A DNA stretch of 64,000 nucleotides, taken from Acidimicrobiia bacterium. Lineage in GTDB: Bacteria; Actinomycetota; Acidimicrobiia; Spongiisociales; ZC4RG35. Both the position numbers and the translations under genes were made by a program. The notes beneath the pieces were generated by a model. It worked only from the letters and a program-made list of their open reading frames with translations, had not been told where the DNA came from and did no database searches. Below are positions 39,192-60,600 of the stretch, in pieces. Positions within the stretch are counted from its first letter, which is position 1. Every line of letters begins with the position of its first letter. The stretch covers positions 2,336,001 to 2,400,000 of the forward strand of contig CBDBCY010000004.1 in the NCBI GenBank assembly GCA_965203555.1, given 5' to 3'.

Positions 39192-40427
39192 ATGTCTTCC
39201 CGATGTTCATTCTGCACCCGGCTCCCCGGCGCCGGTTCCTATGTGGTAGCCGGACCCAAGGGGGTTGGCATATGCGACCTGTGCGCGGTAACCGTCAACA
39301 CGGTCGCCCAGGAGGCGCTGCGACCCCATGGCACCGAAAGACTGGTCACCGGCATCAGACATCTGATGACCAACGACCCCGCCTGGGGGGGCCCGCTGGG
39401 CATCATCGACGACGCGGCCGTCGCCATCCGAAAGGGGAAGGTGGCCTGGGTGGGCGCGGAGCGGGAAATACCGCGCCAACTCGAGGAGCTGCCGCGACTG
39501 GATTGCGGGGGCCGGGTGGCAGTGCCGGGTTTTGTGGACGCATTCTGCCAGGTGGCGGGAACCGCGGGTGGGCCGGCGCCGCCCGACGAGTCATCGCCGA
39601 TTGAGATGGCCACCGAATGGGCCGGGCGATTGCTGGCCGGTGGCGCCACGTGTCTTCTGGTTTCGGTCAGGACCCGTGGCGATACCGAGGAGGACAGGGA
39701 GCGGATCGCTACCGCAAACATGCTCAAACAAGAGCTTCCCTTGAAGGTCGTGACCAGTTGGGCGGTGGGGCCGGATGCCGGCATCTCCCCCTTTGACGGG
39801 GAGGGAAAAGGGATTCTCCGAGATGTCGCCCAGTACCTTTCGGGGCTGTCGATCGTGGTGGGAACCGAAGGGTTTTCTCCCAGCGAGGCTCGCAAGGTTT
39901 GCTCTTCGATGGGGTCGGTGCGAAAGCGGGTGAGGCTGCACGGTGATCCGGACATACCGGCCGACGCGGTCCGCTCGATGCGCCCGCTGGCGGTCCAGGA
40001 CATGACCCAATTGGACGACTGGACTCTGCAGGCGCTGCGATCCAACGGTGGGGCCGTTGTCGTACAGCCCATGTCGAACTTCGGAGGGCGGCTACCGATC
40101 CGGAGCCTGAGGAGTCGGGGTATCACGGTTGCTTTGGGTACGGGTTGTCTGCCCGGTGAACGGTCCGTCACGTCGATGCCCTTTTTGGCCTGGGTGGCTT
40201 CGGAAGCGGCTGACATCCCGATCGAGACGGCGCTGTGGTGCGCCACCTACGGGGGCGCTCAGGCACTGGGTGACAAGGCAAGAGGACTGATCCGCCGGGG
40301 AGCGGTCGGCGATATGGCAATTCTGGATGTTGCCGACTTCCACGAGTTGGCCAACCATCCCGACCTGCCCATGGTGTGGGAACTGATACTGGAGGGAGAC
40401 CTGACCGCAGTGGGTCAAACCGGATGA
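39192..40427 (+). CDS. ClpX C4-type zinc finger fused to a degenerate HutI-like amidohydrolase
   Basis: CSFC..VVAGPKGVGICDLC, then amidohydrolase beta-sandwich (GKVAWVG, DCGGRVAVPGFVD, GLIRRGAVGDMAIL); metal-binding His residues mostly missing. Confidence 0.75.
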   Translation: MSSRCSFCTRLPGAGSYVVAGPKGVGICDLCAVTVNTVAQEALRPHGTERLVTGIRHLMTNDPAWGGPLGIIDDAAVAIRKGKVAWVGAEREIPRQLEELPRLDCGGRVAVPGFVDAFCQVAGTAGGPAPPDESSPIEMATEWAGRLLAGGATCLLVSVRTRGDTEEDRERIATANMLKQELPLKVVTSWAVGPDAGISPFDGEGKGILRDVAQYLSGLSIVVGTEGFSPSEARKVCSSMGSVRKRVRLHGDPDIPADAVRSMRPLAVQDMTQLDDWTLQALRSNGGAVVVQPMSNFGGRLPIRSLRSRGITVALGTGCLPGERSVTSMPFLAWVASEAADIPIETALWCATYGGAQALGDKARGLIRRGAVGDMAILDVADFHELANHPDLPMVWELILEGDLTAVGQTG

Positions 40428-41212
40428 ATTGGAAATCCGATCCCTCCCCGCTGGCGATCTCTCATCGAGGAGGAGCGGGTTTGTGGCCGGAGAACACCAT
40501 GGAAGCCTTCTCCAGAACGGTGGAGATGGGGTATCGGTGGATTGAGACCGACATCCATGTGACGGCGGACGGGGTGGTGGTGTGCCTTCACGATCCCACC
40601 CTGGAACGCACCACCGATGGCGAGGGAGAGGTGGCGAGGCTGCCCTGGAAAGAGGTGCGGGAACTCGACGCCGGATACACCCATCATCCGGACCAGGGTT
40701 TTCCCTTCCGGGGCCAAGGTGTCCGGATACCTTCCCTGGAAGAGGTGGCCTCCTCCTTTCCGGACCTGCGAATGGTGCTGGAGTTGAAGGCCGATCACAC
40801 CGAAGCGGCCCTGTTGCGACTGATTCGACGGTTGAAGCTCGGCGACCGGGTGATAATCGCATCTTTCTCCGATGCTCGATTGGCCCGCGTGCGGGAACTG
40901 TACGACGGAGATATAGCCACGTCCACCGGCGAAAAAGAGGTTGCCCGCTTGGTCAAGGCGGCCTGGCTGGGGAGACGGGCGCGTACCGACCATGCAGCTC
41001 TGCAGATCCCGACCCGGTCCGGTCTCGCGCCGCTCGTCACCCGGCGAACGGTCAAGGCCTACCATCGCATGGGACTGCAGGTGCATGTGTGGACGATCGA
41101 CCACCCCCGTCGCATGGAGCGTCTGCTGGACCGGGGAGTGGACGGCATCATGACCGACCGCCCCGATCTGCTGAAGGAGGTGTTCACCAAAAGAGGAATC
41201 TGGGGACAGTGA
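40424..41212 (+). CDS. Glycerophosphodiester phosphodiesterase
   Basis: SHRGGAGLWPENT, IETDIH, HDPTLERTT, ELK, VWTID, GIMTDRPD. Confidence 0.93.
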   Translation: MNWKSDPSPLAISHRGGAGLWPENTMEAFSRTVEMGYRWIETDIHVTADGVVVCLHDPTLERTTDGEGEVARLPWKEVRELDAGYTHHPDQGFPFRGQGVRIPSLEEVASSFPDLRMVLELKADHTEAALLRLIRRLKLGDRVIIASFSDARLARVRELYDGDIATSTGEKEVARLVKAAWLGRRARTDHAALQIPTRSGLAPLVTRRTVKAYHRMGLQVHVWTIDHPRRMERLLDRGVDGIMTDRPDLLKEVFTKRGIWGQ

Positions 41213-42039
41213 CTCCCGGTTCCTACTACGACTCCGATCAGCCCCGCCGGCTGGTCATCTCCGAGATCAACAATCTCCGCCGCTATCGGGGGCTGCTGCG
41301 GCTGCTGGTGAGAAGGGACCTTACGGTTCGCTACAAGCGGTCCATGCTGGGAGTGTGGTGGACGCTTCTCAACCCCCTGCTGACCGTGGCTGTCATGTGG
41401 GCGGTGTTCAGCACCATTTTCCGCTTCGAGATACCGGGGGGAGTTCCCTACGTGGTGTACGTGCTGTCGGGAGTGATGCTGATCACGTTTTTCTCCCAGG
41501 GGGTGGTGGCGTCGGGATCGTCCATCGTGGGCTCGGCGGGGATTCTGTCCAAGGTGTACGTACCGGCGGAGGTATTCGCGGTGGCGCCCGCTCTCGCCGC
41601 CCTGGTGAATTTCGGCATCAACATCCTCCTGCTGCTGGTGGTGCAGTTGATAGCCGGGGTGGGCATTCCCCTCACCGCATTGCTGGCGCCGATTCCCCTG
41701 CTCTTTTTGGTCATGTTCGTGGCCGGCATGGGGATGATGGTGGCGTCCCTGGCAGTGGCGTATCGGGATGTCCTGGACATAGTCGGGGTGCTGCTCACCC
41801 TCACCATGTACGCCACCCCCGGCTTCTACCCGGTGACCATCGTCCCGGATCGATTCCTGTTCCTGATCCACGTCAATCCGCTCTATTCATACCTGGAAGT
41901 GTTCCGGGGACTGATCTACGGAGGCGGTTTCGCTCCGGGATGGATGTGGGCGGTGATGGTGTTCACGGCCTGCGCCGCCTTGTTGGGGGGCGCTTGGACC
42001 TTCTCCCGATCGTGGCGACGGCTGGCGGTGTTGGTATGA
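41209..42039 (+). CDS. Wzm/TagG-type polysaccharide ABC exporter permease
   Basis: RDLTVRYKRSMLGVWWTLLNP, KVYVP, YRDV, YATPGFYP, NPL. Confidence 0.9.
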   Translation: MTPGSYYDSDQPRRLVISEINNLRRYRGLLRLLVRRDLTVRYKRSMLGVWWTLLNPLLTVAVMWAVFSTIFRFEIPGGVPYVVYVLSGVMLITFFSQGVVASGSSIVGSAGILSKVYVPAEVFAVAPALAALVNFGINILLLLVVQLIAGVGIPLTALLAPIPLLFLVMFVAGMGMMVASLAVAYRDVLDIVGVLLTLTMYATPGFYPVTIVPDRFLFLIHVNPLYSYLEVFRGLIYGGGFAPGWMWAVMVFTACAALLGGAWTFSRSWRRLAVLV

Positions 42040-42773
42040 CGTCGCCGGCGGTTGACTGTCGACAGGTCTCTTTGGTCTATCCACTGGTCAGGGACCGTCC
42101 CGGCTCATTCAAGGAACAGGTCATCCGCTCTCTGCGCGGAAAGATCGAAGTGGATGAACTGAGGGCCATCCGGGATCTTTCTCTCCAGGTCGAGTACGGC
42201 GAAGTGCTGGGAGTGATCGGCGACAACGGCGCCGGGAAGTCAACTCTCATGAAAATCGTCGCCCGGGTGCTCCCCCCGACAGAAGGAAGAGTTATTGTCA
42301 GAGGTCTGGTGGCACCGCTCATCGAGTTGGGAGCGGGGTTCAATCCCGAGTTGACCGCCACCGAAAACGTGATCATGTACGGGGCTATCCTGGGTCGTTC
42401 TCCTCACCAGATGGCAGAGAGAGCGGATGCCATCATCGACTGGGCCGGGTTGTCAGAATTCGCCGATGTGGCGGTGCGGGCCTTTTCATCAGGGATGTTG
42501 GCCCGCCTGGGTTTCTCCATCGTCACCGACATCAACCCCGATGTGTTGCTGGTGGATGAAATCCTCAGCGTGGGTGATCAGAGCTTTCGAGAGAGGTCTC
42601 GGGAACGGGTGGGCAGTGTCATGGAGCGGGGCGCGGCAACGATTCTGGTGTCACACGACATGCAGATGGTGGAGGATCTGGCATCCCGCGCAATATGGCT
42701 GGACAGGGGGAGGATCCGCAAGGAAGGAACGCCGGAAGATGTGATCGCGGCCTACACCGGCGGCGGAGTTTAG
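42036..42773 (+). CDS. Wzt/TagH-type polysaccharide ABC exporter ATPase
   Basis: GDNGAGKSTL, GAGFNPELT, FSSGMLARLGF, DEILSVGD. Confidence 0.92.
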   Translation: MTSPAVDCRQVSLVYPLVRDRPGSFKEQVIRSLRGKIEVDELRAIRDLSLQVEYGEVLGVIGDNGAGKSTLMKIVARVLPPTEGRVIVRGLVAPLIELGAGFNPELTATENVIMYGAILGRSPHQMAERADAIIDWAGLSEFADVAVRAFSSGMLARLGFSIVTDINPDVLLVDEILSVGDQSFRERSRERVGSVMERGAATILVSHDMQMVEDLASRAIWLDRGRIRKEGTPEDVIAAYTGGGV

Positions 42774-43630
42774 AGCAAGTGGGCGAAGCCGGCCGGCGCG
42801 CCTTCGGGGACGGGCAGCAACGGCGCCCGACAGCGTCCTGCCCGCAGGCCCACCATCTCGGCCGCCGCCTTGACTCCGGGAATCCCGTAGCGGGCCACCC
42901 CATCGTTGGCGGCGGTCAGCCGATGCTGTTTCTTCATGTCTCCGGGAGGATTCTCCAACGCGGCGGTCACTACTTCCAGGCCCAACTGCGGGACGTAGTT
43001 GGCGGCCGCCAGTATGACACCGTACACCCCTGCCGCCAGGGTCAGGTTGACGGAATAGGCCGAGCCATTGTACAGGGCGAAGTTGTCCGGTAGTCCGGCC
43101 AGCATCCGCTGGATGCGGACGGCGTCCCCGCTGGAGTCCTTCATGCCCACCACATTCGGGTGTCGGGCCAACTCCCAGACGGTCTCCAACGGGATCGAAT
43201 AGGCAGTTACCACCGGCACCGAATAGAGGAACACCGGAAGGGGGGACTCATCTGCGACTTCTGTGAAGAAGGCCGCAACAAAGTTGGTGCGATTTCGGGA
43301 CAAAGTGGTGGGGGTCAGCACCAAGGCGGCGTCGGCGCCGCCCTCGGCCGCCTCGGCGATCTGGCGCCGGGCCGCTCGATTGGTCTCGGCGTTGATGCCG
43401 CACAGGAGAAAGGTGTTATCGCCGACACTGTCTCGGGAGGCGGCGGTCAGTCGCAATCTCTCACCGGGTTCGAGAAGGGGCCCCTCACCGGTGGAGCCGG
43501 CCAACACGAAACCTTCGTATCCCAACCCGGCCAGCACCGACAGGTTGTGACGATGGGCTTGGAGATCAAGTTCTTGCCGATCATCGAAAGGAGTGATAAT
43601 GGCAGGCATGGCCCTTGGCAGTGAATTCAT
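42770..43630 (-). CDS. DapA/NanA family class I aldolase
   Basis: ITPF, GSTGE, LYSVP, VVGMKDSSG. Confidence 0.88.
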   Translation of the reverse strand: MNSLPRAMPAIITPFDDRQELDLQAHRHNLSVLAGLGYEGFVLAGSTGEGPLLEPGERLRLTAASRDSVGDNTFLLCGINAETNRAARRQIAEAAEGGADAALVLTPTTLSRNRTNFVAAFFTEVADESPLPVFLYSVPVVTAYSIPLETVWELARHPNVVGMKDSSGDAVRIQRMLAGLPDNFALYNGSAYSVNLTLAAGVYGVILAAANYVPQLGLEVVTAALENPPGDMKKQHRLTAANDGVARYGIPGVKAAAEMVGLRAGRCRAPLLPVPEGAPAGFAHLL

Positions 43631-43695
43631 CAGGCTCGGATGATAGCCCTTTGGCGGCCGGTAGCCTTAACCCGGTTGCCGATTAAGGAGAAGAG

Positions 43696-44679
43696 TTGAA
43701 GTTTGCCTGGCTATGCAGCCACGAGTCCTACCAGCCGGAAGTACTGGTGGATCAAGCAGTTCGAGCGGAGGAAGCCGGATTCGACATGATCCTGGGGTCG
43801 GATCACTTCCATCCCTGGGTCGACGACAACTGCGCGTCAGGTTTCGTGTGGTCCTGGCTGGGGGCGGTGGCGGCTCGGACCGACGCGGAACTCGCCACTT
43901 CCGTTACCTGTCCTCTCTATCACTATCACCCCGCCTTGGTGGCCCAGGCGGCCGCCACCGTGGACAGGTTGACAGGAGGAAAATTCGTTCTGGGAGTGGG
44001 TACCGGGGAGAACATCAACGAGGGACCGATGGGGTTCAAATTCGGGGATTACCGGGAACGCATCAGGAGAATGCGCGAAGCACTGGAGATCATGCATCGG
44101 CTGCTGGAGGGCGAGAAACTGGACTTTGAGGGCGACTGGTACATCACCGACAAGGCCAGGCTCTACAGCCCGCCGCCCCGCAAGACGCCTATCTGGATGG
44201 CGGCCGGAGGCCCTCAGTCCGCCACGTTCGCCGGAAGGCGGGCGGATGGCTTGATCACCAGCGTGAAAGCGCCTGCCGACACCCTTGAGAGGGTGATCGG
44301 ACCATTCCGGGCCTCCGCTGAGAAGTGGGGACGGCCTGGAACGCTCATGACCACCCGCTGGTGCGTGCTGGCCGGTGACGAATCCGAAGCCTGGGAAGCC
44401 CTGGGCAGCATGAGGGGCTTGCGGGCGCCCGGAAGGCTGCAGGCTGTCGACCCGATGGTCCTTCGGGAGCGGGCGGACTCCATGGACCGCGATGAAGTTC
44501 TGGGTAAGTACACAATGGCGGCCGGCGTGGAAGATCTGATCGATGTCTACCGCCCGTTGGTGACCGAGATCGGCGCCGACTACGTCGCCATCCAGATCGC
44601 CTCCACCAACCCCGACCGCACCCTGGAAATAGTCGAAAAGGAAGTCCTACCCGAACTGCGGGCGGTGGCCGATTCGTAG
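43696..44679 (+). CDS. F420-dependent LLM oxidoreductase (G6PDH-F420 family)
   Basis: SHE, SDHFHPW, TSVTCP, LGVGTGENINE, MAAGGP. Confidence 0.88.
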   Translation: MKFAWLCSHESYQPEVLVDQAVRAEEAGFDMILGSDHFHPWVDDNCASGFVWSWLGAVAARTDAELATSVTCPLYHYHPALVAQAAATVDRLTGGKFVLGVGTGENINEGPMGFKFGDYRERIRRMREALEIMHRLLEGEKLDFEGDWYITDKARLYSPPPRKTPIWMAAGGPQSATFAGRRADGLITSVKAPADTLERVIGPFRASAEKWGRPGTLMTTRWCVLAGDESEAWEALGSMRGLRAPGRLQAVDPMVLRERADSMDRDEVLGKYTMAAGVEDLIDVYRPLVTEIGADYVAIQIASTNPDRTLEIVEKEVLPELRAVADS

Positions 44680-44781
44680 CCACCCCGGCTCGTCCGGCGG
44701 TCAGCGGGGCCGGATGTCGGGAATGTTCCATCCGCGCCGGATGGGACCAAATCCCGTGAACCTCCCTTTCCAGGGACAGTG

Positions 44782-44831
44782 TCCCTGTTTTGGTATACAT
44801 TTTCGGGGATGGCATCCCTGTTTTGGTATAC
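44782..44831. repeat. Two 17-bp direct repeats, 33-bp period
   Basis: TCCCTGTTTTGGTATAC at 44782-44798 and 44815-44831. Confidence 0.85.
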
Positions 44832-44959
44832 CCTCGGCCTGTGATTCTGTACTGGCTTGACGGCGGATCGGTATAGGTTGACCCTGCCGCTCTGTCCGTA
44901 AGTCAGGGTACGGCGGGAGTCCTCTCCCGATCACGGCGGGGAGAGTATGCTGAAAGGGC

Positions 44960-45679
44960 ATGAGCGAGGGTGACGGGATGGATCCGCGTTTCGACCGTCG
45001 GCTCTACACGGTGAGCGACGCCGCCCGGTACATTGGCATGAGTCCTACGACCCTTTCGGCTTGGACAAGGGAGAGGTCCGGTCGGAGGAAGCCTCGGTCC
45101 GGCGGTGGGGAGAGGCCGGTAGTGACCGCATTGGAAGCACGAAAGGGTGATCGTCGGCGGATTCCTTTCATAGGACTGATCGAGGCGACGGTTGTGCAGG
45201 CCTTCCGGCAGACCGGCCTTCCGATGCAGCGTATTCGTCGCGCCCTTCGGGTGCTTTCGGAGAGAGGCGAACTGGAACATGCTCTGGCTTCGAAGGGCTT
45301 GTTCACCGACGGCGCCGAGGTGCTGTACGACTACGCCTCCTATTCCGGCGATCCCCAGCTTCGTCTGCTCACCGTGGTACACACCGGCCGGCGGGTCTTT
45401 CACGAAGTTATATTGGAGTACGTGCGGAGAATCGATTTCGGAGACAACTGGGCGACCGGCTTGATTATCCCCATCACCAAGCGGGAACTTCTGAGGGTCC
45501 GTCCTGATGTGGCCGGTGGAGACCCGCTGTTCATGAACGGCGGGGCGCCGCTGTCAGCGGTGTACTCCCGGTATCGAGCCGGCGAGCCCATCGGTTCCAT
45601 AGCAGCCGACTTCGAAGTCCCCGCTGACGATATCGCCGAGAGCATCCGTGCCGTCTGGCCGCGATCCGAAGCAGCCTGA
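44960..45679 (+). CDS. DUF433-containing antitoxin (VapB45/Rv2018-like)
   Basis: LYTVSDAARYIGMSPTTLSAW HTH, FIGLIEA, LFTDGAEVL, RPDVAGGDP..RYRAGEPIGSIAADF DUF433 domain. Confidence 0.85.
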   Translation: MSEGDGMDPRFDRRLYTVSDAARYIGMSPTTLSAWTRERSGRRKPRSGGGERPVVTALEARKGDRRRIPFIGLIEATVVQAFRQTGLPMQRIRRALRVLSERGELEHALASKGLFTDGAEVLYDYASYSGDPQLRLLTVVHTGRRVFHEVILEYVRRIDFGDNWATGLIIPITKRELLRVRPDVAGGDPLFMNGGAPLSAVYSRYRAGEPIGSIAADFEVPADDIAESIRAVWPRSEAA

Positions 45680-46076
45680 TCCCGACACCGCGATCTTTTT
45701 CCTGGACCGTTCGGTAGGTAAGAACACTGTGGCCGCCGCGCTCCGGGAACAGGGTGTCGACGTGCGGCATATGGGAGAGATCTACCCTTCTGACGGCCAA
45801 TTCATCTCTGATCCCGAATGGACACTTCGTTGTGATCAGGAAGGCTGGGTGGCAAGCACCAAGGACGGTCGTATCGTTGGTGACCACTGGGAGGCTATCG
45901 AGTCGGCGGGGCTTCGTCTCTTCGTTTTCCCCAACGCGAACCTGACCGGAGAGGAAATGGGTGCCCGAATCAGGAACAACTGGAGTCGTATCTTGGCCCA
46001 CCTCCGCAAACCGGGACCATATGCGTACGCGATACTGCCCCGCGGTCTCGACAGACGGTGGCCTGCCAAAGGTTGA
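45648..46076 (+). CDS. PIN-like toxin (VapC45/Rv2019-like)
   Basis: FFLDRSVG, SDPEW, GWVASTKDGRI; overlaps the antitoxin gene. Confidence 0.82.
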   Translation: MPSGRDPKQPDPDTAIFFLDRSVGKNTVAAALREQGVDVRHMGEIYPSDGQFISDPEWTLRCDQEGWVASTKDGRIVGDHWEAIESAGLRLFVFPNANLTGEEMGARIRNNWSRILAHLRKPGPYAYAILPRGLDRRWPAKG

Positions 46077-46088
46077 GCACCGGCAGTT

Positions 46089-47921
46089 TCAGCTTATCCG
46101 TGTTCGAGCAGCGCGCAGGGCGTCGGCCATGGCCCCGGTGCCGGAAAAGGTGACGGTGAGGGTCTGGGTTGCCCGGGTCATCGCCGTGTACAGCAGCCTC
46201 TTTTGGGCATCGATCCTGCTGGAGACATCTTCATCCCTCACCCATATGTGGTTGGCGGCTCCTATGATCACATGGGGAAACTCGAGACCCTTGAAGAGAT
46301 GAAGAGTGGCCATCCGTACCGCGTCTCGGACAAAGGCTGACTTATCCTTGTTCCGGAAAGGCCGCCGGGCGTTGAACCAGCGCACTCCACTCTTCTGAAG
46401 TTCTTGCCGCACGTAATGTCTCTGCCGTTTGTGACCTGACAACACCACTATGTCTCTTGGTTCTACTCCTGCGTCAAGCCTCTCTTTCACCTGGCGAGCT
46501 ATCTCCGTGGTTTCAGCCCTCAGGTCTGCGCATTCCAGAAGGAGCGGTCTCGGCCCGCTCCGTTCGGCCGCCTCGGGCAGCACCAGCGTCTCGAGATCGT
46601 TGGCGACGGCCCGGCTTGGGGTCCGGTTGGGGCCCACCAATATATCGACGGCTGGCTCAAGTATCTCACGGGTGTTGCGGTAGTTTCGCCGGAGAATGGT
46701 GGAGCGTCCGCGGGCGGTCATTCCCGGCGGGTTCCAGGTCATCCGTCTCCGGTAGATGTTCTGAGCGCTGTCCAGCGCCATCACGAAATGGTCCTTGTCC
46801 GACTTGAGCATTGCGTGGGCCAGTTCGAGATGGGAGGGTTCCAGGTCCTGTGCCTCATCAACCAGGACCAAGTCGTATTTGTCAGAATCGCTCAGGTCTT
46901 CGGCATTGTTCTTGGCATCGATTCGTCTCTGCCGCCACTTCTCTTCATCTGGCAGATTCGGTGGCGAACCTCCGGCAGGCTCCTCTACCAGTTCGTATGC
47001 CAAGGCGTCCACCGTCTTGACCTTGATATTGGAGGTGCCCGCCACCTCCTTCTTCAACGCGGCAAACAATGGCCGGTTGAAGCACAATAACAGGATGTGG
47101 GTCGACGGGAAGTGCTCGGCGAAGTATCTGGCGCGATAGGTGAGTACCAGGGTCTTGCCGCTTCCCGCCACGCCGCGGATGATCCGATAGCCGGGTCCGA
47201 GCGACATCGCCAGCCGCTCTTGCCGTCTGTCGAGCACCGCGATGGCTTGGTCGGGATCAGAAAGGGAGGGTGGATCGAATAGCAGCCGTCCCTGGTCGGC
47301 GTCCTGATCATCTTTGATGACGATCCTGGGATTGACCGCCGCACGAACAACCTTTTCGTTCTCCTCCGTCAACGATGGAGATTTCCCTCCCAGGATGCGG
47401 CGAAGGGCCATCCCCAGATTCTTCGGCTGGAAGTCCTCCCTCGATAGCAGGGGAGTGTTGCGGCCAGCGGAGGCAACTCTGGCTCGGGGGACCTCCGGCA
47501 AGGCGATCGCATGCCTGATGGGAAGTTCACTGATTCGAGAAGTGCCGGAGATGTGAATCCGCTGAGAAAGCCCTTCTGCTCTCGTCTTTACATCGCTCTG
47601 GATATGGGCAAGGTCGAGCTTGCGGCGTAAAGCCAGCACTCCCCTGCGGGCCAGGGAGCGAGGGGAAGGCGCTTCCAGAACGGCGATTCCAGATGCCGGA
47701 TCGAATACCACCAGGTAGGGATCCTGGTCCGTTGGAGAGGACACCTGGTCGAAATCGATTTCAAACTCCGAGGCCAAGGTGACGCGATCACCGGTCCCGG
47801 TTCTCTCCAGCCACACTGTCACCTCCTCCGGCAAGAAATCGCGCAAGGCCCGGGCAACGGTCTGCAGGCGGGCGGGCAGATCGTTGCGACTGGGAATGTT
47901 CTGAGGTATCAGGAAGGCCAT
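46089..47921 (-). CDS. Degenerate NERD-like domain plus UvrD-like SF1 helicase
   Basis: GVAGSGKT, LVDEAQD, DSAQNIY, RNYRNT, HLFKGLEF, LYTAMTRA; N-terminal DPYLVVFDPASGIAVLEAP is NERD-like but lacks the catalytic D and K. Confidence 0.85.
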   Translation of the reverse strand: MAFLIPQNIPSRNDLPARLQTVARALRDFLPEEVTVWLERTGTGDRVTLASEFEIDFDQVSSPTDQDPYLVVFDPASGIAVLEAPSPRSLARRGVLALRRKLDLAHIQSDVKTRAEGLSQRIHISGTSRISELPIRHAIALPEVPRARVASAGRNTPLLSREDFQPKNLGMALRRILGGKSPSLTEENEKVVRAAVNPRIVIKDDQDADQGRLLFDPPSLSDPDQAIAVLDRRQERLAMSLGPGYRIIRGVAGSGKTLVLTYRARYFAEHFPSTHILLLCFNRPLFAALKKEVAGTSNIKVKTVDALAYELVEEPAGGSPPNLPDEEKWRQRRIDAKNNAEDLSDSDKYDLVLVDEAQDLEPSHLELAHAMLKSDKDHFVMALDSAQNIYRRRMTWNPPGMTARGRSTILRRNYRNTREILEPAVDILVGPNRTPSRAVANDLETLVLPEAAERSGPRPLLLECADLRAETTEIARQVKERLDAGVEPRDIVVLSGHKRQRHYVRQELQKSGVRWFNARRPFRNKDKSAFVRDAVRMATLHLFKGLEFPHVIIGAANHIWVRDEDVSSRIDAQKRLLYTAMTRATQTLTVTFSGTGAMADALRAARTRIS

Positions 47922-53147
<5,226 letters not shown>

Positions 53148-53282
53148 TGGAGCTCTCGATCAGCAGATCCCTGTTGGGAGTGAAGCCGGAGGCCGTACCC
53201 TCCCTCTTCCACGCGACTGCTCAGGCTGTTCTCGACACTCTCCGGAGTCTCACACCGTCCGGGACACCCTTGATTTTGACTA

Positions 53283-53309
53283 GAATAGGATTGACAGAGT
53301 CAACTATTC
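53283..53309. promoter_or_regulatory. Inverted repeat upstream of the sup-type ACP
   Basis: GAATAG-GA-TTGAC-AGA-GTCAA-CTATTC just before the GAGGAG RBS. Confidence 0.45.
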
Positions 53310-53325
53310 ATGTGAGGAGAGCAAA

Positions 53326-53562
53326 GTGTCTTCAACCGAGGAACGAGTCAAAGCGCTGGTCGCTGCGAACCTGGAAGTGGACGGTCAACCATTGGGTGGT
53401 TCTCTGAACCTGGAAGTCAGCCTGGTGGATCATGGAGTGTCGTCTTTGGATCTGGTGGCGTTTGCCAAGGTGGTCGCCCAGGACTTTGGCGTGACCTTCA
53501 GCACCGAAGACTGCGCGAGTATCAACACCATCCAGGGTCTCATAGATTTCTTGGACGGCTGA
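53326..53562 (+). CDS. Stand-alone acyl carrier protein (SupB-like)
   Basis: LVDHGVSSLDLV carrier motif; 78 aa acidic; next to a PPTase and PKS. Confidence 0.85.
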   Translation: MSSTEERVKALVAANLEVDGQPLGGSLNLEVSLVDHGVSSLDLVAFAKVVAQDFGVTFSTEDCASINTIQGLIDFLDG

Positions 53563-53629
53563 GACGGGAAGTCTCGATAACTAAGAGGAACGCCCATCAA
53601 CCGGTTTATGAGGGGCTGAAGGGGGGGCG

Positions 53630-54466
53630 GTGGGTTGCCGAGTCGGAGGAAGCGCGGACTCCGTCGACGACCCTTGGTGGCGTCTCCTCAAATTGACCGG
53701 TCGCCTTGAGATCAATCATGTGAGCCTGGTGCCACACTCGTCCCACGAGGAAAGAGCCTGGGACTGGTTGAGTGACGAAGAACGGCGGCGGTGGGAGAGG
53801 TTCTTGCGTTCAGGTCCCCGGCGCCGTTTTGCTCTGTGCCGGGCCGCGCTGCGGGCGGTTCTCTGCTCCCGGTTGGGTTGTGACAACCGGGATCTCGCTT
53901 TCGAAGTCTCCGAATATGGAAAGCCCTTTGCTCTGTTGCGAGGAGAGAGAGCACCCATCGGATTCAACGTAAGCCACAGCGGAAACCACGGGCTCATTGC
54001 GCTGGCCGAACAGGGAAGGGTGGGGGTTGACGTGGAGGAGCGAAAGTGCCGGGGGGACCTGGACGACCTGGCTGAAACTGTTTTCGGAGCGGAAGAGCGG
54101 GCCCTTGTTGCCGAGTTGCAGGGAGAAGCCAAGCTCCGTACTTTCTACGATTTCTGGACTGTCAAGGAAGCCTTGGCCAAAGCCTTGGGCACGGGCCTCC
54201 ATACGGACTTTGCACGGTTTCAGGTACCACCGGGGATGCGTGGAGGCGAGCGGACCGGCCTCTTCCGGTTTCCCCATCTGTCAGACGTGATTTGGGAGGT
54301 GGAGAATCTCGGTAGCAGACAGACTGCTATGGCCGTGGCTCTTGAAGTGGATCCCAAAGGGACAGGTAGGTTAACCCCCGGAGTCGCTCACTCCGGATGG
54401 GAGCAAGACGGTCAACCTTTCCGGTCGAAGCCGGGGAGGAGGCGCCGGCATCAAACCCGGGGCTGA
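53630..54466 (+). CDS. Sfp-type 4'-phosphopantetheinyl transferase
   Basis: YGKP, FNVSHSG, VGVDVE, WTVKEALAKALGTG. Confidence 0.93.
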   Translation: MGCRVGGSADSVDDPWWRLLKLTGRLEINHVSLVPHSSHEERAWDWLSDEERRRWERFLRSGPRRRFALCRAALRAVLCSRLGCDNRDLAFEVSEYGKPFALLRGERAPIGFNVSHSGNHGLIALAEQGRVGVDVEERKCRGDLDDLAETVFGAEERALVAELQGEAKLRTFYDFWTVKEALAKALGTGLHTDFARFQVPPGMRGGERTGLFRFPHLSDVIWEVENLGSRQTAMAVALEVDPKGTGRLTPGVAHSGWEQDGQPFRSKPGRRRRHQTRG

Positions 54467-54670
54467 CTCGCCGGCGATTCAACGACTGGTTGACGGGTCT
54501 TCACGGTCAAGATCCCAACAGGCCCGATAGTGGGGTAGGACAAGGGCATCCCGGCAGAACCCTGGGCCGGGTACCCCCTGGACTATCTTTGGCTGCACGC
54601 TTTTTCACTTGCCGGGAGGCGAGGTGACGATCGGTACCAAGAGGACTATGCGACAGATAGGCGGTGGCTT

Positions 54671-56404
54671 TTGTCAGGCCGCATAGACGAGGGGATCCGC
54701 TACGAACCGGAAGAGCGTTGCTCTCTCTGGCTGGCCGCCGGGGTGGGGATACAGGGCGTGGTGACCGTGCTGGCGATAATCGTCCTGGTGGCGGTCTTCA
54801 CTGTCCTGGCAGCAGATCAGGGCCGCCAATACCTGGAATGGTCTGTTTTTGCAGCGTTGGTTATCAGCGGAGTGGTCTCCGTGTTGCAAGCGGCCCGGAT
54901 CGGGCGACTGGGTGGAGGTCATGTGCTCATTTCGGGAGTAACACCCAACTACATCCCGATCTCTGTCCTGGCGCTGGAGGTGGGAGGTCCCGAGGTGTTG
55001 GCCGGCCTTATCGTTCTGTCGGCGCTCTTTTACCTGGTAGTGGCGGCGTGGCTCCCGCTGCTGCGCCGAATCATCACTCCGGTTGTTGCCGGCACGGTGT
55101 TGATGCTGATCGCCACCATGATCCTCCCCGTAGCCGTTGATCGTCTTGTAGAAGTGCCTGTGGGAGCATCACAGGGCGCCGGCCTCGGTGTGGTGGCAGT
55201 GACGCTGGCTGTCACCACCGTCCTGGTGCTCCGGGCTACCGGGACCTGGCGGATGTGGTCCCTGCTGATCGGGATCGCGGTGGGGGGTCTGGCCGCTGTT
55301 CCGTTTGGACTGTACGAACTGGAGCGAGTTTCGGGGGCGCCTTGGTTTGGGATTCCCGAGGGAGGCCTCCCCGGACTGGATCTGACCTTGACCGCCGAGG
55401 CATGGGCGCTGGCGCCGATGTTTCTGATCGTCACTCTCGTGCAGGCCATCAAGAACATCGGCGACAACATGGCCGCTCAGCAGGTATCCTATCGCAGGCA
55501 CAGGGCGATAGATTTCCGTTCGGTCCAGGGGGCTATCTACGCGAACGGGGTCGGGATACTGCTCTCGGGGCTGGCCGGGGCTCCGCCCTCGTCCTCCTAT
55601 TCGTCGTCGACTGTCTCGCTGGTGCGTCTCACGGGGGTGGCTGCTCGTCGGGTGGGATATGCGATGGGAGTGATCCTCGTGGGACTGGCTTTGTTCCCCA
55701 AGGCGACGGCGGTTTTGTTGGGGATACCGACTCCGGTGATGGGAGCAGTATTGCTAACCGTGACCGGTCTGCTTTTCATGGAAGGTTTGCGTGCCGTGTC
55801 CCAGGGCGGCCTCGATCCCCGGAACATCCTGCTGGTGGGAATGGCCTATGCCGTGGGCGTGGGCATGGAGCAGCGGAACATTCTGGAGGGGCTCGTGGCG
55901 CAGCCATGGGATTCGCTGCTCGGCGACGGCCTCACCCTGGGCACCGCCACCGCCGTGGGACTGTCGTTGTTTCTCAGGGCAACCAGTCCGCGACCGAGGC
56001 GCCTGGAGGCGGTCCTGGACGCCTCCGCTTTTCCTGCCATCGACTCTTTCCTTGAAGAGATGGCCCGCGAGAAGGGCTGGGACAACTCTTCTGTCCAGCG
56101 GCTGCGCTCGGCTGGTGAGGAGACGCTCTCCAGTTTGCTGCAACCCGGCAACACATACGAGAACCAGGAGACCCCGCGGCTGATCGTGGTGGCGTATCTC
56201 GACGAAAAGTCCGTAGAGATGGAGTTCATGGCGGTCTTGGAACAGGAAAACCTGGAGGACCGCCTTGCCCATCTGGCCGAAGAGGACCAGGAATGGGATG
56301 AAAGAGAGCTTTCATTTCGCCTTCTTCGCCACCACGCTTCCAGTGTCCGGCATCAGAAATACCAAGGCATAGACATAGTTACGGTGAAGGTTGAGAGTTC
56401 CTAA
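54671..56404 (+). CDS. NCS2 (xanthine/uracil-type) permease with C-terminal HATPase-like domain
   Basis: IITPVVAGTV, LTGVAARRVG, LFPK, IPTPVMG; soluble ~135-aa tail. Confidence 0.82.
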   Translation: MSGRIDEGIRYEPEERCSLWLAAGVGIQGVVTVLAIIVLVAVFTVLAADQGRQYLEWSVFAALVISGVVSVLQAARIGRLGGGHVLISGVTPNYIPISVLALEVGGPEVLAGLIVLSALFYLVVAAWLPLLRRIITPVVAGTVLMLIATMILPVAVDRLVEVPVGASQGAGLGVVAVTLAVTTVLVLRATGTWRMWSLLIGIAVGGLAAVPFGLYELERVSGAPWFGIPEGGLPGLDLTLTAEAWALAPMFLIVTLVQAIKNIGDNMAAQQVSYRRHRAIDFRSVQGAIYANGVGILLSGLAGAPPSSSYSSSTVSLVRLTGVAARRVGYAMGVILVGLALFPKATAVLLGIPTPVMGAVLLTVTGLLFMEGLRAVSQGGLDPRNILLVGMAYAVGVGMEQRNILEGLVAQPWDSLLGDGLTLGTATAVGLSLFLRATSPRPRRLEAVLDASAFPAIDSFLEEMAREKGWDNSSVQRLRSAGEETLSSLLQPGNTYENQETPRLIVVAYLDEKSVEMEFMAVLEQENLEDRLAHLAEEDQEWDERELSFRLLRHHASSVRHQKYQGIDIVTVKVESS

Positions 56405-56452
56405 TTCCTGAGTGGGGGCCGGTTCTATTTGTCCCGCCGACGGGAATGAAAC

Positions 56453-57397
56453 TCAATCCACTCCGATAGTTTCGAGAAACTCCCTCAGGGCAGAGGCGCA
56501 GGCCTGCGGTTGTTCGAGCTGAAGGAAGTGGGTGGCGTCCGGAAGGAAGTCGTAGTCGACAGTGAGTATGTCGCTCAGGTCAAGCGTTGGCAGAAAGGAG
56601 AAGGGGAGTGTGGGGTCCGCTCCGAATACCTTGGTAGGGGATTGCAACCTGTCGAAATCAACCATCACCGAGAATACTCCGGCGTATTCGACAATCCTCG
56701 CTTCGTATTCCCTGGGGCACCGAAGTTCGTAATCGTGGCCGTCCGTTCTTCGACGCAGGGTCGTCGCCGCCATGAGCTCCAAGACTCCTGGGACGACGCT
56801 GGAGAACATCGGGACGAATCGAAGGATGTAGGAAAAGTCCTCTTTGTCCGGGAAGCGCTCGGAACGATGGCGAGTCAGGAAGGCGTTGCGTGTGGCTGCC
56901 GCTTCCATTTCCTCGTAGCTCCTGCCTGGTTTGCAGAGAGGCGGATCGAACAGCATACGTCCGGAGAACGCGCTTCCATTGGTGGGGGACAAGAGTGAAA
57001 TCAAGGCTGAAACGGAGTGGAACACCCCTACCTTGGGTTTCGCTCCGAAGTGTCGATCGATAGCCTCCATGACGAGTTCGTGGTCATTGACGAATGTTGG
57101 GACATTGTGCTTTTCGATGGTTCCCACCGGGTTCCACCCATGGTTTCTGAGGTCATAGATGATCAGGTCGTAGTCGTCGACCAAGAGAGACCAGAACGGG
57201 TAATAGAGGTCGCTGGCGAGGCCGTTGCCGTGGCTGAGCACCAGCCGAGGCCCCTCCGGGTTGCCGTGACGGCGAAGGACGATGACTCCATCTCCCTCCA
57301 ATCTCACCCTACGAACCGAGAGTGGCTCAGGTACCTGCCAGACGGGATCTTGATCAGAAGTCAAATGGCTTGTCATAGTACCCTTTGGCTCATCCAC
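56453..57397 (-). CDS. Alpha/beta hydrolase associated with the sup-type PKS
   Basis: SHGNG, YDLRNHG, FHSVS nucleophile elbow, THFLQLEQP. Confidence 0.85.
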   Translation of the reverse strand: MDEPKGTMTSHLTSDQDPVWQVPEPLSVRRVRLEGDGVIVLRRHGNPEGPRLVLSHGNGLASDLYYPFWSLLVDDYDLIIYDLRNHGWNPVGTIEKHNVPTFVNDHELVMEAIDRHFGAKPKVGVFHSVSALISLLSPTNGSAFSGRMLFDPPLCKPGRSYEEMEAAATRNAFLTRHRSERFPDKEDFSYILRFVPMFSSVVPGVLELMAATTLRRRTDGHDYELRCPREYEARIVEYAGVFSVMVDFDRLQSPTKVFGADPTLPFSFLPTLDLSDILTVDYDFLPDATHFLQLEQPQACASALREFLETIGVD

Positions 57398-57666
57398 ATG
57401 AGGTCCCTCCGCCGGTTATCCTGGCCCGCTCGGGGTGTCGACCCGGAAGCGGCGCCGTTCGAAGGTGGGTTTGTCGCCGGAGTCCTTCCGTACTTCTCCG
57501 GTCCGGGCTCATCTCGGGGACGCGGCAGGGTGGGCGCCACCACCGGAGCGGCCGACCCGTCGGACGATTCGGCCCGGTCGGATGGCTTTCGCCTTCGGCT
57601 GCCGCTGGTAATGATCGCTTGTAGGTATTTTGAGAGAGACAACCTGAGTACGGGGACAGGTGCCTT

Positions 57667-60600
57667 ATGACGCTGAGAGAGTCTTCCGGCCCATCCAGAC
57701 GATCCGTCGCCTCTTTCGTGGCCGAAGAACGGGACATGTCTTCGAGCGGAGAGCCGATCGCGATCGTGGGCATGGCGTGCCGGTTCCCCGGCGCGCCCGA
57801 TCTGGCGGCCTTCTGGCGGCTTCTGGAAAGGGGCGGGAACGCGGTGACAGAAGGAGTCCCCGGCTCGGGGGTGGGGCGAGTGGGCGAGCTCTATCCGGAT
57901 GCCGAAGTCCAGAGCGAGGCCTGCCGTTTCGGAGCTTTCATCGAGGGGATCGACCTGTTCGACGCTGAGTTCTTTCGCATCTCGCCGGTGGAGGCGCAAC
58001 TCCTGGACCCTCAACAGAGGTTGATGTTGGAGACCAGTTGGCAGGCCCTGGAAGATGCGGGCATGGACCCGGAACGATTGAAGGGAAGCCGCACCGGGGT
58101 CTACATCGGCATCAGCAACATGGACTACCGGCTCCTGAACCTGGATTCCAGCCAGACCGCCGAGGCTGCCACCAGCCTGTACGCCGTGAGCGGCACCTCC
58201 CTGAACACCGCGGCCGGGCGGGTCGCCTTTGCCCTGGGCCTGGAAGGGCCCGCCATGGCGGTGGACACCGCCTGCTCCTCGTCGCTGGTGGCGGTGCACC
58301 AGGCGGTCTCGGCCCTGCAGCGGGACGAGGCGAGTGTGATCCTGGCCGGTGGAGTGCAGGCGGTCCTCAACGGTCGTCTGACCGAGTTGCGGGCCAATGC
58401 CCGGATGTTGTCCCCGGATGGAAAATGCAAGGCCTTCGACGCCTCGGCCAACGGCTTCGTCCGTGGGGAGGGCTGCGGAATAGTGGTGCTGAAGAGGCTC
58501 AGGGATGCAGAGGCTGACGGCGACCGGATCTGGGGAGTGATCCTGGGATCCGCCCTCAACCAGGACGGCACGAGTGCCGGGTTCACGGTACCCAGCGAAC
58601 GGGCCCAGGCAGAGGTGATCACCGAAGCGCTGCGCCGGGCCGGGGTCGCTCCCTGGCAGGTGGACTACCTGGAGGCTCACGGAACGGGCACCGAGGTTGG
58701 CGACCCGATCGAGTTGAACTCCGCCGGCGCCGTGTACGGCCAGGGCAGGGAACCGGACCGGCCCCTGCTGGTCGGCTCGGTCAAGACGAACATCGGCCAC
58801 TTGGAACCGGCGGCCGGAGTCGCCGGTCTGATGAAGGTCATCCTGTCGATGCAGCATGGGACAGTGCCCAAGCATTTGCACTTCCGGGACCCGAACCCCG
58901 GCGTGGCCTGGGACGCCCTCCCGTTGCAGATAGCCACTGAATGCACCGACTGGCCGGTGCATACCGACCGTCCTCCCCGGGCGGGCATCAGCGCCTACGG
59001 GTGGTCGGGAACCAACGCCCACGTGGTTGTCGAAGGATATGGGGAGCCGGTACGTGGCTCGGACCAAGGAGGGAGACCGTCAGGACCTGCGGGCCTCTAT
59101 CGCGACATTGCCGTGTCTCTACCCAATTCGGGCGCCGGGATGGCGCCCTCCCCGGACGAAGTCGCAGACCGCCCGGCGCGGCTCCTGCCCCTCTCGGCCA
59201 AGTCGGAGGTCGCCTTGCGTGAGTTGGCGGACCGCTACCTGTCCTGGTTGGATGAGCAGGCAGACGCCCCATCAGCCAATGGATCCGCCGCCGACCTGCA
59301 CCCCGGTGACATGACGTGGACCGCCGCAGAGGGTCGCGGGCACTTCGACTTCCGGGCCGGAGTGGTCTTCCGGGACATGGCTTCCCTGCGAGCCGGTTTG
59401 AAGGCAGTCGCCGGGATGGAATCTCCATCTTCCCCGCGGAATGCCCGGAGGGTGGCCTTCGCCTTCACGGGGCAGGGCGCCCAGTGGCAGGGTATGGGCC
59501 AATCCCTCTATCGCAGCGAACCGGTCGCCCGGGCCGTTCTGGACCGATGCGACCAACTGATCCGACAAGAGCGGGGAGTGTCACTGCTGGATGTCATGTT
59601 CGGCAGGCCCGCCGCGGCAGGTGACCTGCACGACCCGGCGTGGACCCAGCCGGCCATCTATGCCCTGCAGTGCGCCCTCTCCGCTCTCTGGGAGAGCGTG
59701 GGGATCAGGCCCGAGGTGGTGCTGGGACATAGCCTGGGCGAGATTGCGGCCGCGCATGCCGCCGGAGTCTTCACCCTTGAAGAGGGACTCCGGTTCGCCT
59801 CCACCAGGGGGACGCTGATGGCGGCCCTTCCCAGCGCCGGGGCGATGGCCGCGGTGTTCGCCCCCGAACGCCGGGTGAAGGCGGAGGTGGCCGAATGGAA
59901 TGAAGCCCGCGGCGCCGCCGACCTTTGCGTTGCGGTGGACAACGGCGCTCACCAGGTGATCAGCGGTCCGGCCGCGCAAGTGCACGCCTTTTCGGACCGC
60001 ATGGAGGAGGCGGGTGTGAAGGTACGACGGCTGGCGCCCAGCCCCGCCTACCACAGCCCGCTGGTGGAACCGGCCCTCGACGACCTGGAGGCATTCTTCG
60101 CGGACGTGGCCGTCTCTTCGGCCGGAATCCCGCTGGTCAGCAACGTGACGGGAAGGGTGGTGGAGCCCGGCATGGCGATGGATGGGGCTTACTGGCGCCG
60201 TCAGGCCGGTGAGCCGGTCGCCTTCCGAAGCTCCGTGGAGACGCTGGCCGCCCTGGGCGTGGATGCGGTTATCGAGCTTGGGCCCCACGCGGTGCTCGGG
60301 CCCCTGGTTTCGGTCAACTGGCCCCAGAACCCGGGGAACCTTGAGGGCCCTGCGGTGCTGGTCAGTCTGCTGCGGCCTTCCTGGGACGGGTCGGAGCCCG
60401 AGAGGGCCGATGCCTTCCTGCAGGCGGTGGCTGGAGCCTACGAGGGGGGCCTGCCCGTCTCCTTTGAGGGACTGTTCGCCGGGGAGTCCCGGCGCCGGGT
60501 GGCCCTGCCCGGATATCCCTTCCAGCGACGGCGCCACTGGGTGCCGAAGGCGGGGAGGCGGAGACGGGGCGACGCCCACCCCCTGCTGGGTGTCAGGCAC

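Follow-up and report, generated by a model that had tools for sequence, protein, structure and literature searches.

RecBCD and AdnAB engage both strands of DNA with superfamily 1 (SF1) motors. Helicases of the DinG type move 5'-3', those of the RecQ and UvrD types move 3'-5', and DEDDh domains digest from 3' ends. A three-domain DnaQ-DinG-RecQ fusion was described on the Thermus megaplasmid pTT27 (Omelchenko et al. 2005), and ARMADA is presented (PMC12458937) as a defence system made up of three helicases and a PglX-like methylase, one helicase being a UvrD with an N-terminal nuclease-like domain and one an SNF2 protein. Here we analyse positions 2,336,001 to 2,400,000 of contig CBDBCY010000004.1 from an Acidimicrobiia bacterium (assembly GCA_965203555.1), a stretch of 64,000 nucleotides referred to below as the window, which carries a cassette of two genes: an exonuclease (Exo)-DinG-RecQ fusion and, directly behind it, a UvrD-like helicase. 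A preliminary description made from the sequence alone knew of no described protein joining DinG and RecQ; that statement fails against the Thermus protein, and the claim of an undescribed fusion is corrected here. The fusion architecture has been known since 2005 and is widespread. The pairing with a UvrD-like gene as a conserved unit is new as far as literature searches show: they brought up no publication in which a DinG-RecQ fusion has a UvrD partner or a role in defence.

The cassette forms one clade (group A, found in Acidimicrobiia) inside a wide Exo-DinG-RecQ superfamily. We tentatively propose, with a probability of about 0.45, that it is directed against foreign or aberrant DNA, be it of phage or plasmid origin or linear DNA entering the cell, as an accessory rather than a core repair system, for which a defence role is plausible. 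The accessory reading follows from its patchy occurrence, being present in 2 of 17 genomes of the window's own genus and in 7 of 12 of another (g18), and missing from genomes that are 95-97% complete.

The fusion and its UvrD-like partner

The single 1741-residue open reading frame (ORF) with three catalytic domains, first read from the sequence in the preliminary description, was confirmed, and every motif named there lies within a few tens of bases of its assigned place. Residue n of the fusion corresponds to window position 53147-3(n-1). D77 and E79 of the exonuclease thus lie at about 52919, and H234 and D239 at about 52440; the DinG unit has GTGKT at 52073, DEAH at 51509 and QGVGR at 50276, and the RecQ unit GSGKS at 49856, DEAHC at 49565, QETGR at 49019 and cysteines 1602-1625 at 48344-48275. 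The expectation that the catalytic motifs are intact was likewise borne out by an alignment of 26 homologues, in which the exonuclease residues D77, E79, D165, H234 and D239, the DinG Walker A (356-363), DEAH (547-550) and QGxGRLIR (958-965) motifs, the RecQ GSGKS, DEAHC and QETGR motifs, both motif VI arginine fingers and the zinc cysteines C1602, C1619, C1622 and C1625 are all invariant. The same alignment holds no invariant or near-invariant cysteine before residue 1199, and hence no four-cysteine iron-sulphur site in the DinG unit. With the NCBIfam RecQ family model (TIGR00614) residues 1066-1385 score 305.2 bits against a cut-off of 219.8, which places them in the RecQ subfamily; the DinG model PRK08074 matches residues 72-1001 at 1e-119, below its equivalog cut-off, and the PADLOC profile typeIV_DinG matches the DinG unit at 6e-103. 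The nearest solved chains are 8zef ('3'-5' exonuclease DinG') and 6fwr (DinG) for the DinG unit, and RecQ chains 4tmu and 1oyw for the RecQ unit. Pfam recognises the zinc-binding motif at 25.5 bits with a cut-off of 25, and no HRDC domain is among its matches to the fusion. Conservation is lowest in residues 1401-1741 (29-42% identity inside the close clade). The first 50-70 residues of the ORF are unconserved, alignments to homologues beginning no earlier than about residue 44-73; translation may therefore start at Met51, near 52997, which would give a protein of 1691 residues.

That an assembly error or frameshift has joined separate dinG and recQ genes, a worry voiced in the preliminary description for the DinG-RecQ junction, has next to no probability. 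A word-index search with the fusion returned 570 proteins at E<=0.001; the 120 of these that were listed, from many sources, are 50-81% identical to it and 1631-1873 residues long, and 119 carry the same Pfam domain set. Those bearing a name are annotated as 'RecQ family ATP-dependent DNA helicase' and come from Acidimicrobiaceae, Candidatus Poriferisocius and unclassified bacteria. Full-length, stop-free frames occur in 7 genomes of a class sample (n=401) and in 20 of the 29 genomes of family f10, the close clade comprises at least 120 clusters at 90% identity, and the same domain order is found on complete Thermus plasmids annotated in RefSeq. Misassembly at the junction is excluded because of the 120 listed full-length homologues, and the fusion stands.

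The two genes travel together. In all 23 close loci examined (the window, L009, L023-L028, L037-L039 and L117-L128) the fusion is followed immediately, on its own strand, by the partner. In the class sample, the 7 of 401 genomes with a fusion match at E<=1e-250 are also those with a partner match at E<=1e-30, one further genome having a partner relative at 28% identity. The conserved gene order that the preliminary description had put up for checking is thereby established. Pairwise identities of fusion and partner correlate with r=0.97 (171 pairs, 19 loci), a figure inflated by relatedness, and no other neighbour family is common to more than 6 close loci. No protein joining partner to fusion was found, the 25 longer matches (1076-1256 residues, 25-31% identity) carrying SF1-helicase/AAA Pfam domains; this is a weak negative. 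The junction reads GGAGAA-TAG-ATG, such that the fusion stop abuts the partner ATG at 47921, as previously described, with GGAG just upstream. Judged by this arrangement the cassette is a self-contained and, by prediction, translationally coupled two-gene unit.

The UvrD half of the partner is clear: Pfam matches are UvrD-helicase, UvrD_C and AAA_19, and GSGKT (253-257) and DEAQD (355-359) are invariant among aligned relatives. An N-terminal peptide, MAFLxPxNIP, is present in 20 of 20 aligned relatives, which fixes the start codon; it may dock on the fusion. A complex prediction with fusion residues 1055-1741 and partner residues 1-232 scored 0.00 in two runs, with the controls not folded, and counts neither for nor against such docking.

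The N-terminal part had been described as a NERD-like domain (NERD*), and here the evidence is divided. At E<=0.01 the partner has no Pfam match to NERD, nor does NERD appear among the precomputed domains of the 120 listed relatives. The PADLOC profile C3a187 ('NERD+UvrD') matches residues 184-592 at 7.3e-53 through its positions 171-543 of 559 only, its N-terminal positions 1-170 finding no counterpart. A model of the full-length partner (predicted local distance difference test score, pLDDT, 73.0) yields only SF1 helicases (UvrD, PcrA, Rep) and SLFN11 in Foldseek, and a model of the N-domain built from 20 sequences (pLDDT 68.4), with an alpha-beta-beta-beta core, gave no match against the PDB at E<=0.001, the best being the McrC-containing 6ut7_G at E=0.25. 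Of 30 matches to residues 1-232 in a language-model look-alike search (Atlas), 27 are NERD-carrying clusters, with scores of 0.92-0.93 for the three rows shown, which suggests a NERD likeness as a lead only. At the nuclease-type positions of the domain, residues 39 and 83 are variable and the lysine position, 85, is a conserved proline. The UvrD assignment therefore holds and the NERD assignment draws weak support, from the Atlas look-alikes and from neither Pfam nor Foldseek. The domain is probably a degenerate, weakly NERD-like alpha/beta domain that is non-catalytic, and the partner does not show the features that mark Nhi and other NERD-helicases, namely a NERD domain that can be recognised as such, with acidic and lysine residues of the nuclease type.

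Some partner genes are imperfect. The one in G033 (L030, G033:C13:5415-7235) has one in-frame TAG, and in G401 the partner frame (L023:12902-14188) spans only 428-445 residues, the N-domain being absent; these may be decaying copies or assembly errors. At L119:6611-12583 (-) a 1990-residue antisense open frame overlaps the fusion in a high-GC genome and misleads gene calling by longest ORF; fusion and partner are both present there by tblastn. Long ORFs in such high-GC genomes are by themselves no evidence of genes.

Table 1. Features of the cassette and its immediate surroundings in the window, followed by the genes flanking a distant fusion at locus L040.
Feature	Position	Strand	Details
Toxin-antitoxin-like pair, HTH_66/DUF433 protein and PIN_10 protein	44960..46076	+	Pfam; convergent with the cassette
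Partner, SF1 UvrD-like helicase core	46089..47225	-	residues 233-610 and stop
Partner, N-domain	47226..47921	-	residues 1-232 of 610
Exo-DinG-RecQ fusion gene	47922..53147	-	maximal uninterrupted ORF, 1741 residues; TAG stop 47922-47924
Fusion, C-terminal tail	47925..48269	-	residues 1627-1741; no Pfam match
Fusion, RecQ zinc-binding motif with four Cys	48270..48404	-	residues 1582-1626; RecQ_Zn_bind 2.3e-05
Fusion, segment of ~190 residues between RecQ core and zinc finger	48405..48977	-	residues 1391-1581; no family match
Fusion, RecQ-type superfamily 2 (SF2) helicase core	48978..49964	-	residues 1062-1390; DEAD 1076-1239 (4.8e-39), Helicase_C 1284-1384 (2.9e-25)
Fusion, DinG/XPD-type SF2 helicase	50163..52166	-	residues 328-995; ResIII 328-417, Helicase_C_2 834-994 (8.3e-35), Pfam
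Fusion, DEDDh (DnaQ/RNase T-type) 3'-5' exonuclease domain	52410..52928	-	residues 74-246; Pfam RNase_T 7.7e-22
Upstream intergenic region	53148..53325	.	178 bp; divergent from a small + strand ORF
PDC-S68 and MzaA-like genes flanking a distant fusion	L040:14018-17689 and L040:7208-8806		

Comparison with known systems and distant fusions

The closest described relative is the Thermus protein. When plasmids were searched by tblastn, megaplasmids of Thermus proved to carry DinG-RecQ fusions, among them TT_RS10770 (1649 residues) on pTT27 of HB27, whose alignment covers residues 520-1405 of our fusion at 31% identity. The two share the Pfam order RNase_T, ResIII/Helicase_C_2, DEAD/Helicase_C, RecQ_Zn_bind, including the gap of ~190 residues before the zinc finger. 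They also share an accessory, dispensable character, the pTT27 recQ being rated 'Highly Permissive' in transposon sequencing and part of the shell pangenome (PMC13140390, 2026). They differ in setting: the Thermus gene is borne by a megaplasmid, and where the window has a UvrD-like helicase gene it has three small genes downstream (279, 180 and 514 residues); cmr genes lie ~7 kb away. On T. aquaticus pTA78 the fusion gene follows a Phd/VapC pair, and an IS256 transposase is another neighbour of the megaplasmid copies.

More distant fusions are common in metagenomes, where 39 of 80 fetched loci have DinG and RecQ in one ORF, 3 of them close and 36 distant (27-35% identity). The order RNase_T-DinG-RecQ, as in the window protein, was found in all four fusions tested (Thermus TT_RS10770, L044, L053 and L077), and RecQ_Zn_bind follows after the same ~190-residue gap in three of them (Thermus, L044 and L053); the shared order and gap argue for a single origin. 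Partners of the distant forms include SNF2 giants of 2163-2646 residues, unknown proteins of ~750 residues, a TmtA-like giant, and an unknown protein of 700-1000 residues that is once fused to a PglX-like methylase (3e-147). Most of the conserved partners match no family. At L065 the fusion belongs to a Thermus-type three-gene set, with a UvrD-like gene abutting upstream. At L040 (~32% identity) the flanking genes encode a full-length PDC-S68 (E=0) and a protein resembling MzaA (8e-50); PDC-S68, catalogued as a single-gene defence candidate, may work with the fusion.

On these observations one could build a larger picture, in which Exo-DinG-RecQ would be the shared core of a large unnamed family of multi-helicase systems against foreign DNA with exchangeable partners: the NERD-like UvrD in Acidimicrobiia, the RecD-like PDC-S68, SNF2 giants, a PglX-like methylase fusion and the three-gene set of the Thermus megaplasmids. 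The window pair would then be the simplest, two-gene form, a bipolar motor whose own exonuclease shreds invading DNA, and the fusion would have a place like that of the YprA helicases, around which DISARM, Dpd, Druantia and ARMADA are built. We consider this generalisation unlikely as it stands. ARMADA itself is, by analogy, the nearest conceptual parallel: its ArmD is a UvrD with an N-terminal nuclease-like domain, and PglX-like and SNF2 partner types recur around the distant fusions.

The N-terminal 1000 residues of the fusion have the two-domain layout of the Exo-DinG (DnaQ-DinG) proteins of Firmicutes and Actinobacteria (8zef, 6.6e-42) and resemble them also in having no conserved iron-sulphur cysteines. 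Unlike them, the fusion falls below the curated cut-offs (PRK08074, 401 versus 789 bits; TIGR01407, 367.1 versus 547.7 bits), and carries a whole C-terminal RecQ helicase together with an obligate partner gene. The linkage of a 3'-5' exonuclease to a RecQ helicase in one chain is that of WRN. Like other members of the RecQ family the fusion has a four-cysteine zinc motif after the helicase core, set apart by ~190 extra residues, and it scores below the cut-offs of the bacterial RecQ equivalogs (TIGR01389, 365.2 versus 640.2 bits; PRK11057, 312.1 versus 1015 bits). The likeness to RecBCD, AddAB and AdnAB would be one of working only, namely two motors of opposite polarity and a nuclease in one complex. 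Those enzymes use SF1 motors and RecB-type PD-(D/E)xK nucleases, whereas the fusion has SF2 motors and a DEDDh exonuclease, and Pfam finds no PDDEXK_1 domain, and so no RecB-type nuclease, in either fusion or partner.

Comparisons with catalogued defence systems end at the helicase cores. PADLOC matches are limited to the cores of Gabija GajB, Nhi, BrxH, DpdF and type IV DinG, and the pair is therefore not one of the Gabija, Nhi, BREX (BrxH), DpdF or type IV systems, which supports, for Gabija, Nhi and BREX, the statement in the preliminary description that it matches none of them. GajB models match parts of the partner core at 1e-15 or weaker, and no GajA is present beside the cassette among the scanned neighbours; Nhi matches only 60 residues of the partner (336-395) at 2.9e-07. 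More generally, no gene of the GajA, YprA or methylase type lies beside a close-clade cassette. The type IV-A CRISPR DinG (Csf4) is likewise a poor fit, with 81.4 bits against a TIGR03117 cut-off of 400, no tandem repeats in 36000-64000 and no cas gene among the scanned neighbours.

A further protein from the window's own genome touches on the same modules. At G000:C4:1280878-1286205 (-), outside the window (locus L131:4882-10206), a 1775-residue protein combines an N-terminal region that is Exo-like by BLAST alignment, though without a Pfam match, with a RecQ-like helicase, 36% identical to the RecQ core of the fusion, and a UvrD-type helicase. Similar frames of 1727-1866 residues occur in at least 7 other genomes of the genus. 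We know of no description of it; the protein independently links exonuclease, RecQ and UvrD modules.

Distribution and genomic setting

The cassette is present in 7 of the 401 class-sample genomes. Within the window's genus the two carriers are the window's genome (G000) and a sister species (G003), with fusions 81% identical, and across family f10, to which g18 belongs, 20 of 29 genomes, and 16 of the 19 of high quality, carry it. Three f10 genomes give two matches, and in the two fetched (G446 and G434) the copies share only 49% and 52% identity and cluster with those of other genera. What flanks the cassette varies even inside a genus. Such a distribution is that of an accessory cassette and not of a universally inherited core gene.

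DNA comparison of five same-genus genomes shows that G003 alone has a match to window 44765-53300, the part with the toxin-antitoxin (TA) pair and the two cassette genes, whereas the left flank (40000-44680) is conserved in all five and the right flank is rearranged in the other four. All 16 other genomes of the genus hold a match to a stand-alone Exo-DinG, in open frames of ~1000-1130 residues (split in G015) that are 36-40% identical to the N-terminal half of the fusion, and a 990-residue frame of the window's genome encodes one as well, at 39% identity; in this genus the cassette is therefore an extra. Among other genera of the window's family, the best DinG matches reach only 1e-11 to 1e-44 in seven genomes, and one more genome, of 75% completeness, has none. 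The 38 relatives lacking a full-length fusion include the unpublished genomes G027 and G038.

Neighbours of the cassette in the window, by Pfam, are the TA pair, a phosphopantetheinyl transferase and a permease. The TA pair adjoins the cassette only in the window and in G003 and is regarded here as a neighbour of the system. The segment found only in G000 and G003 has at its left edge, ahead of the HTH_66/DUF433-PIN pair, two tandem 32-nucleotide copies (44767-44831), each with an internal palindrome CAGGGAC..GTCCCTG; they may be an operator of the TA operon. Upstream of the fusion an inverted repeat, TTGACT-N16-AGTCAA, lies at 53276-53303; with its 6-nucleotide arms it may be due to chance. 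Beyond it on the + strand follow a 78-residue ORF that by eye resembles an acyl or peptidyl carrier protein (53326-53562), the phosphopantetheinyl transferase (53630-54466) and an open frame of more than 2100 residues that continues beyond the window (57667-63999). The genes of 53326-63999 probably form a polyketide or nonribosomal peptide cluster, the order of which relative to the left flank differs in other members of the genus.

Proposed working and competing roles

To our knowledge, no enzyme that unites motors of the DinG (5'-3') and RecQ (3'-5') types with a 3'-5' exonuclease in a single chain has been studied biochemically. With the polarities of their families, DinG would run 5'-3' and RecQ 3'-5', each on its own strand, making a bipolar, RecBCD/AdnAB-like motor that moves in one direction along a duplex end or fork, while the exonuclease of the fusion would trim the 3'-ended strand and the UvrD-like partner would add a third motor and perhaps recognise the substrate.

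Such a machine might instead serve the cell's own DNA. It could be an accessory module for repair, recombination or replication rescue, the lineage's own DinG and RecQ in one enzyme after the manner of WRN plus FANCJ, clearing R-loops, G-quadruplex (G4) structures, stalled forks and recombination intermediates while the partner strips proteins or RecA; we hold this to be a serious rival, though a less likely one than an attack on foreign DNA. The invariance of all catalytic motifs at 50-80% identity speaks for it, as do the nearest solved relatives, the repair helicases RecQ, WRN, BLM and DinG, the kept synteny among close relatives (L123 and L124 share several neighbours) and the place of the pTT27 gene among repair genes in the Thermus literature (PMC13140390, PMC11143384). 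In G033 the fusion is the sole RecQ-family match above cut-off. Several further observations favour a repair role and at the same time weigh against an attack on foreign DNA. The cassette is frequent in f10, and in five of five f10 genomes tested it is the only gene of the DinG family (Helicase_C_2), as expected of a resident repair gene. Its neighbours in the close clade (124 proteins within 4 genes, 21 loci) are mostly housekeeping or metabolic, the commonest Pfam families being short-chain dehydrogenases (7) and ABC transporters (4), and a UvrA-like gene lies divergently upstream in 2 loci. Clear defence genes are few: L121 has a type IIG restriction-modification enzyme and L038 an SNF2 helicase. 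The neighbours matched by the PADLOC profiles mad3, mad8 and mad2 of the MADS system are ABC-ATPase or UvrA-like proteins and the type IIG enzyme. Three more observations weigh against an attack on foreign DNA: the fusion and partner of G000 and G003 (81% and 87%) are no more diverged than their flanks (74-94%), searches of 72,556 plasmid and 50,697 phage records gave no copy at a query coverage of 80% or more, and among 89 neighbours of the 36 distant fusions no PADLOC family was matched by more than 3 proteins. Three SNF2 proteins, two of which lie on the near-identical contigs L053 and L054, took up the 25-family list of that last tally, so it added little.

What speaks against a repair role is the patchiness within genera described above, together with the coexistence in one genome of two copies only 49-52% identical, and the stand-alone Exo-DinG that the window's genus already has. 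Being the only DinG of a genome says little, because DinG is absent from many Acidimicrobiia. The cassette is not SOS-like and no stand-in for end resection. In 21 of 21 loci no GAAC-N4-GTTC (LexA-type) box or PafBC-type motif, by consensus, lies within 450 nucleotides upstream, and in five of five carrier genomes tested two adjacent ORFs of ~1000-1100 residues with RecB-type nuclease domains, read as AdnAB-like from size and adjacency only, are present anyway. Elsewhere in the window's genome there are four perfect TCGAAC-N4-GTTCGA palindromes (C2:21833, C4:413150, C4:733970 and C4:1430073), which we take to be LexA-type boxes. Distant fusions, finally, are operon partners of defence-type genes: PDC-S68, MzaA-like, TmtA-like and PglX-like methyltransferase genes and SNF2 giants adjoin them, and these we count in favour of an attack on foreign DNA. 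It is quite improbable that the cassette instead has a selfish function or one of mobile elements, acting in plasmid or island maintenance, in counter-defence or on DNA in transfer, and travels with mobile DNA rather than serving the host. The setting of the Thermus copies, on megaplasmids beside TA genes and an IS256 transposase, would suit such a function, as would 2 DDE transposases and 3 HipA-like proteins among the close-clade neighbours (which also include the TA pair of the window and G003), the rearranged, variable segment in the window's genus and the coexistence of copies from different subclades. The ~8.5-kb segment specific to G000 and G003, however, consists of the TA pair and the two genes only and has no integrase, relaxase or replication gene; no convincing direct repeats or att sites flank it, its GC content is that of the surroundings, the window has no tRNA gene, and the plasmid and phage collections hold no copy at the coverage given above.

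Attack on foreign or aberrant DNA remains our preferred, if tentative, reading. Whatever its role, the Exo-DinG-RecQ family is common, with at least 120 close-clade clusters, distant forms in 36 of the 80 metagenome loci fetched, and members on Thermus megaplasmids; the relative in Thermus thermophilus HB27 makes that organism a tractable model. Should a defence role prove true, the fusion would be a new core enzyme for multi-helicase defence systems; should a repair role prove true, it would be a bacterial, single-chain counterpart of the WRN/BLM-FANCJ partnership.

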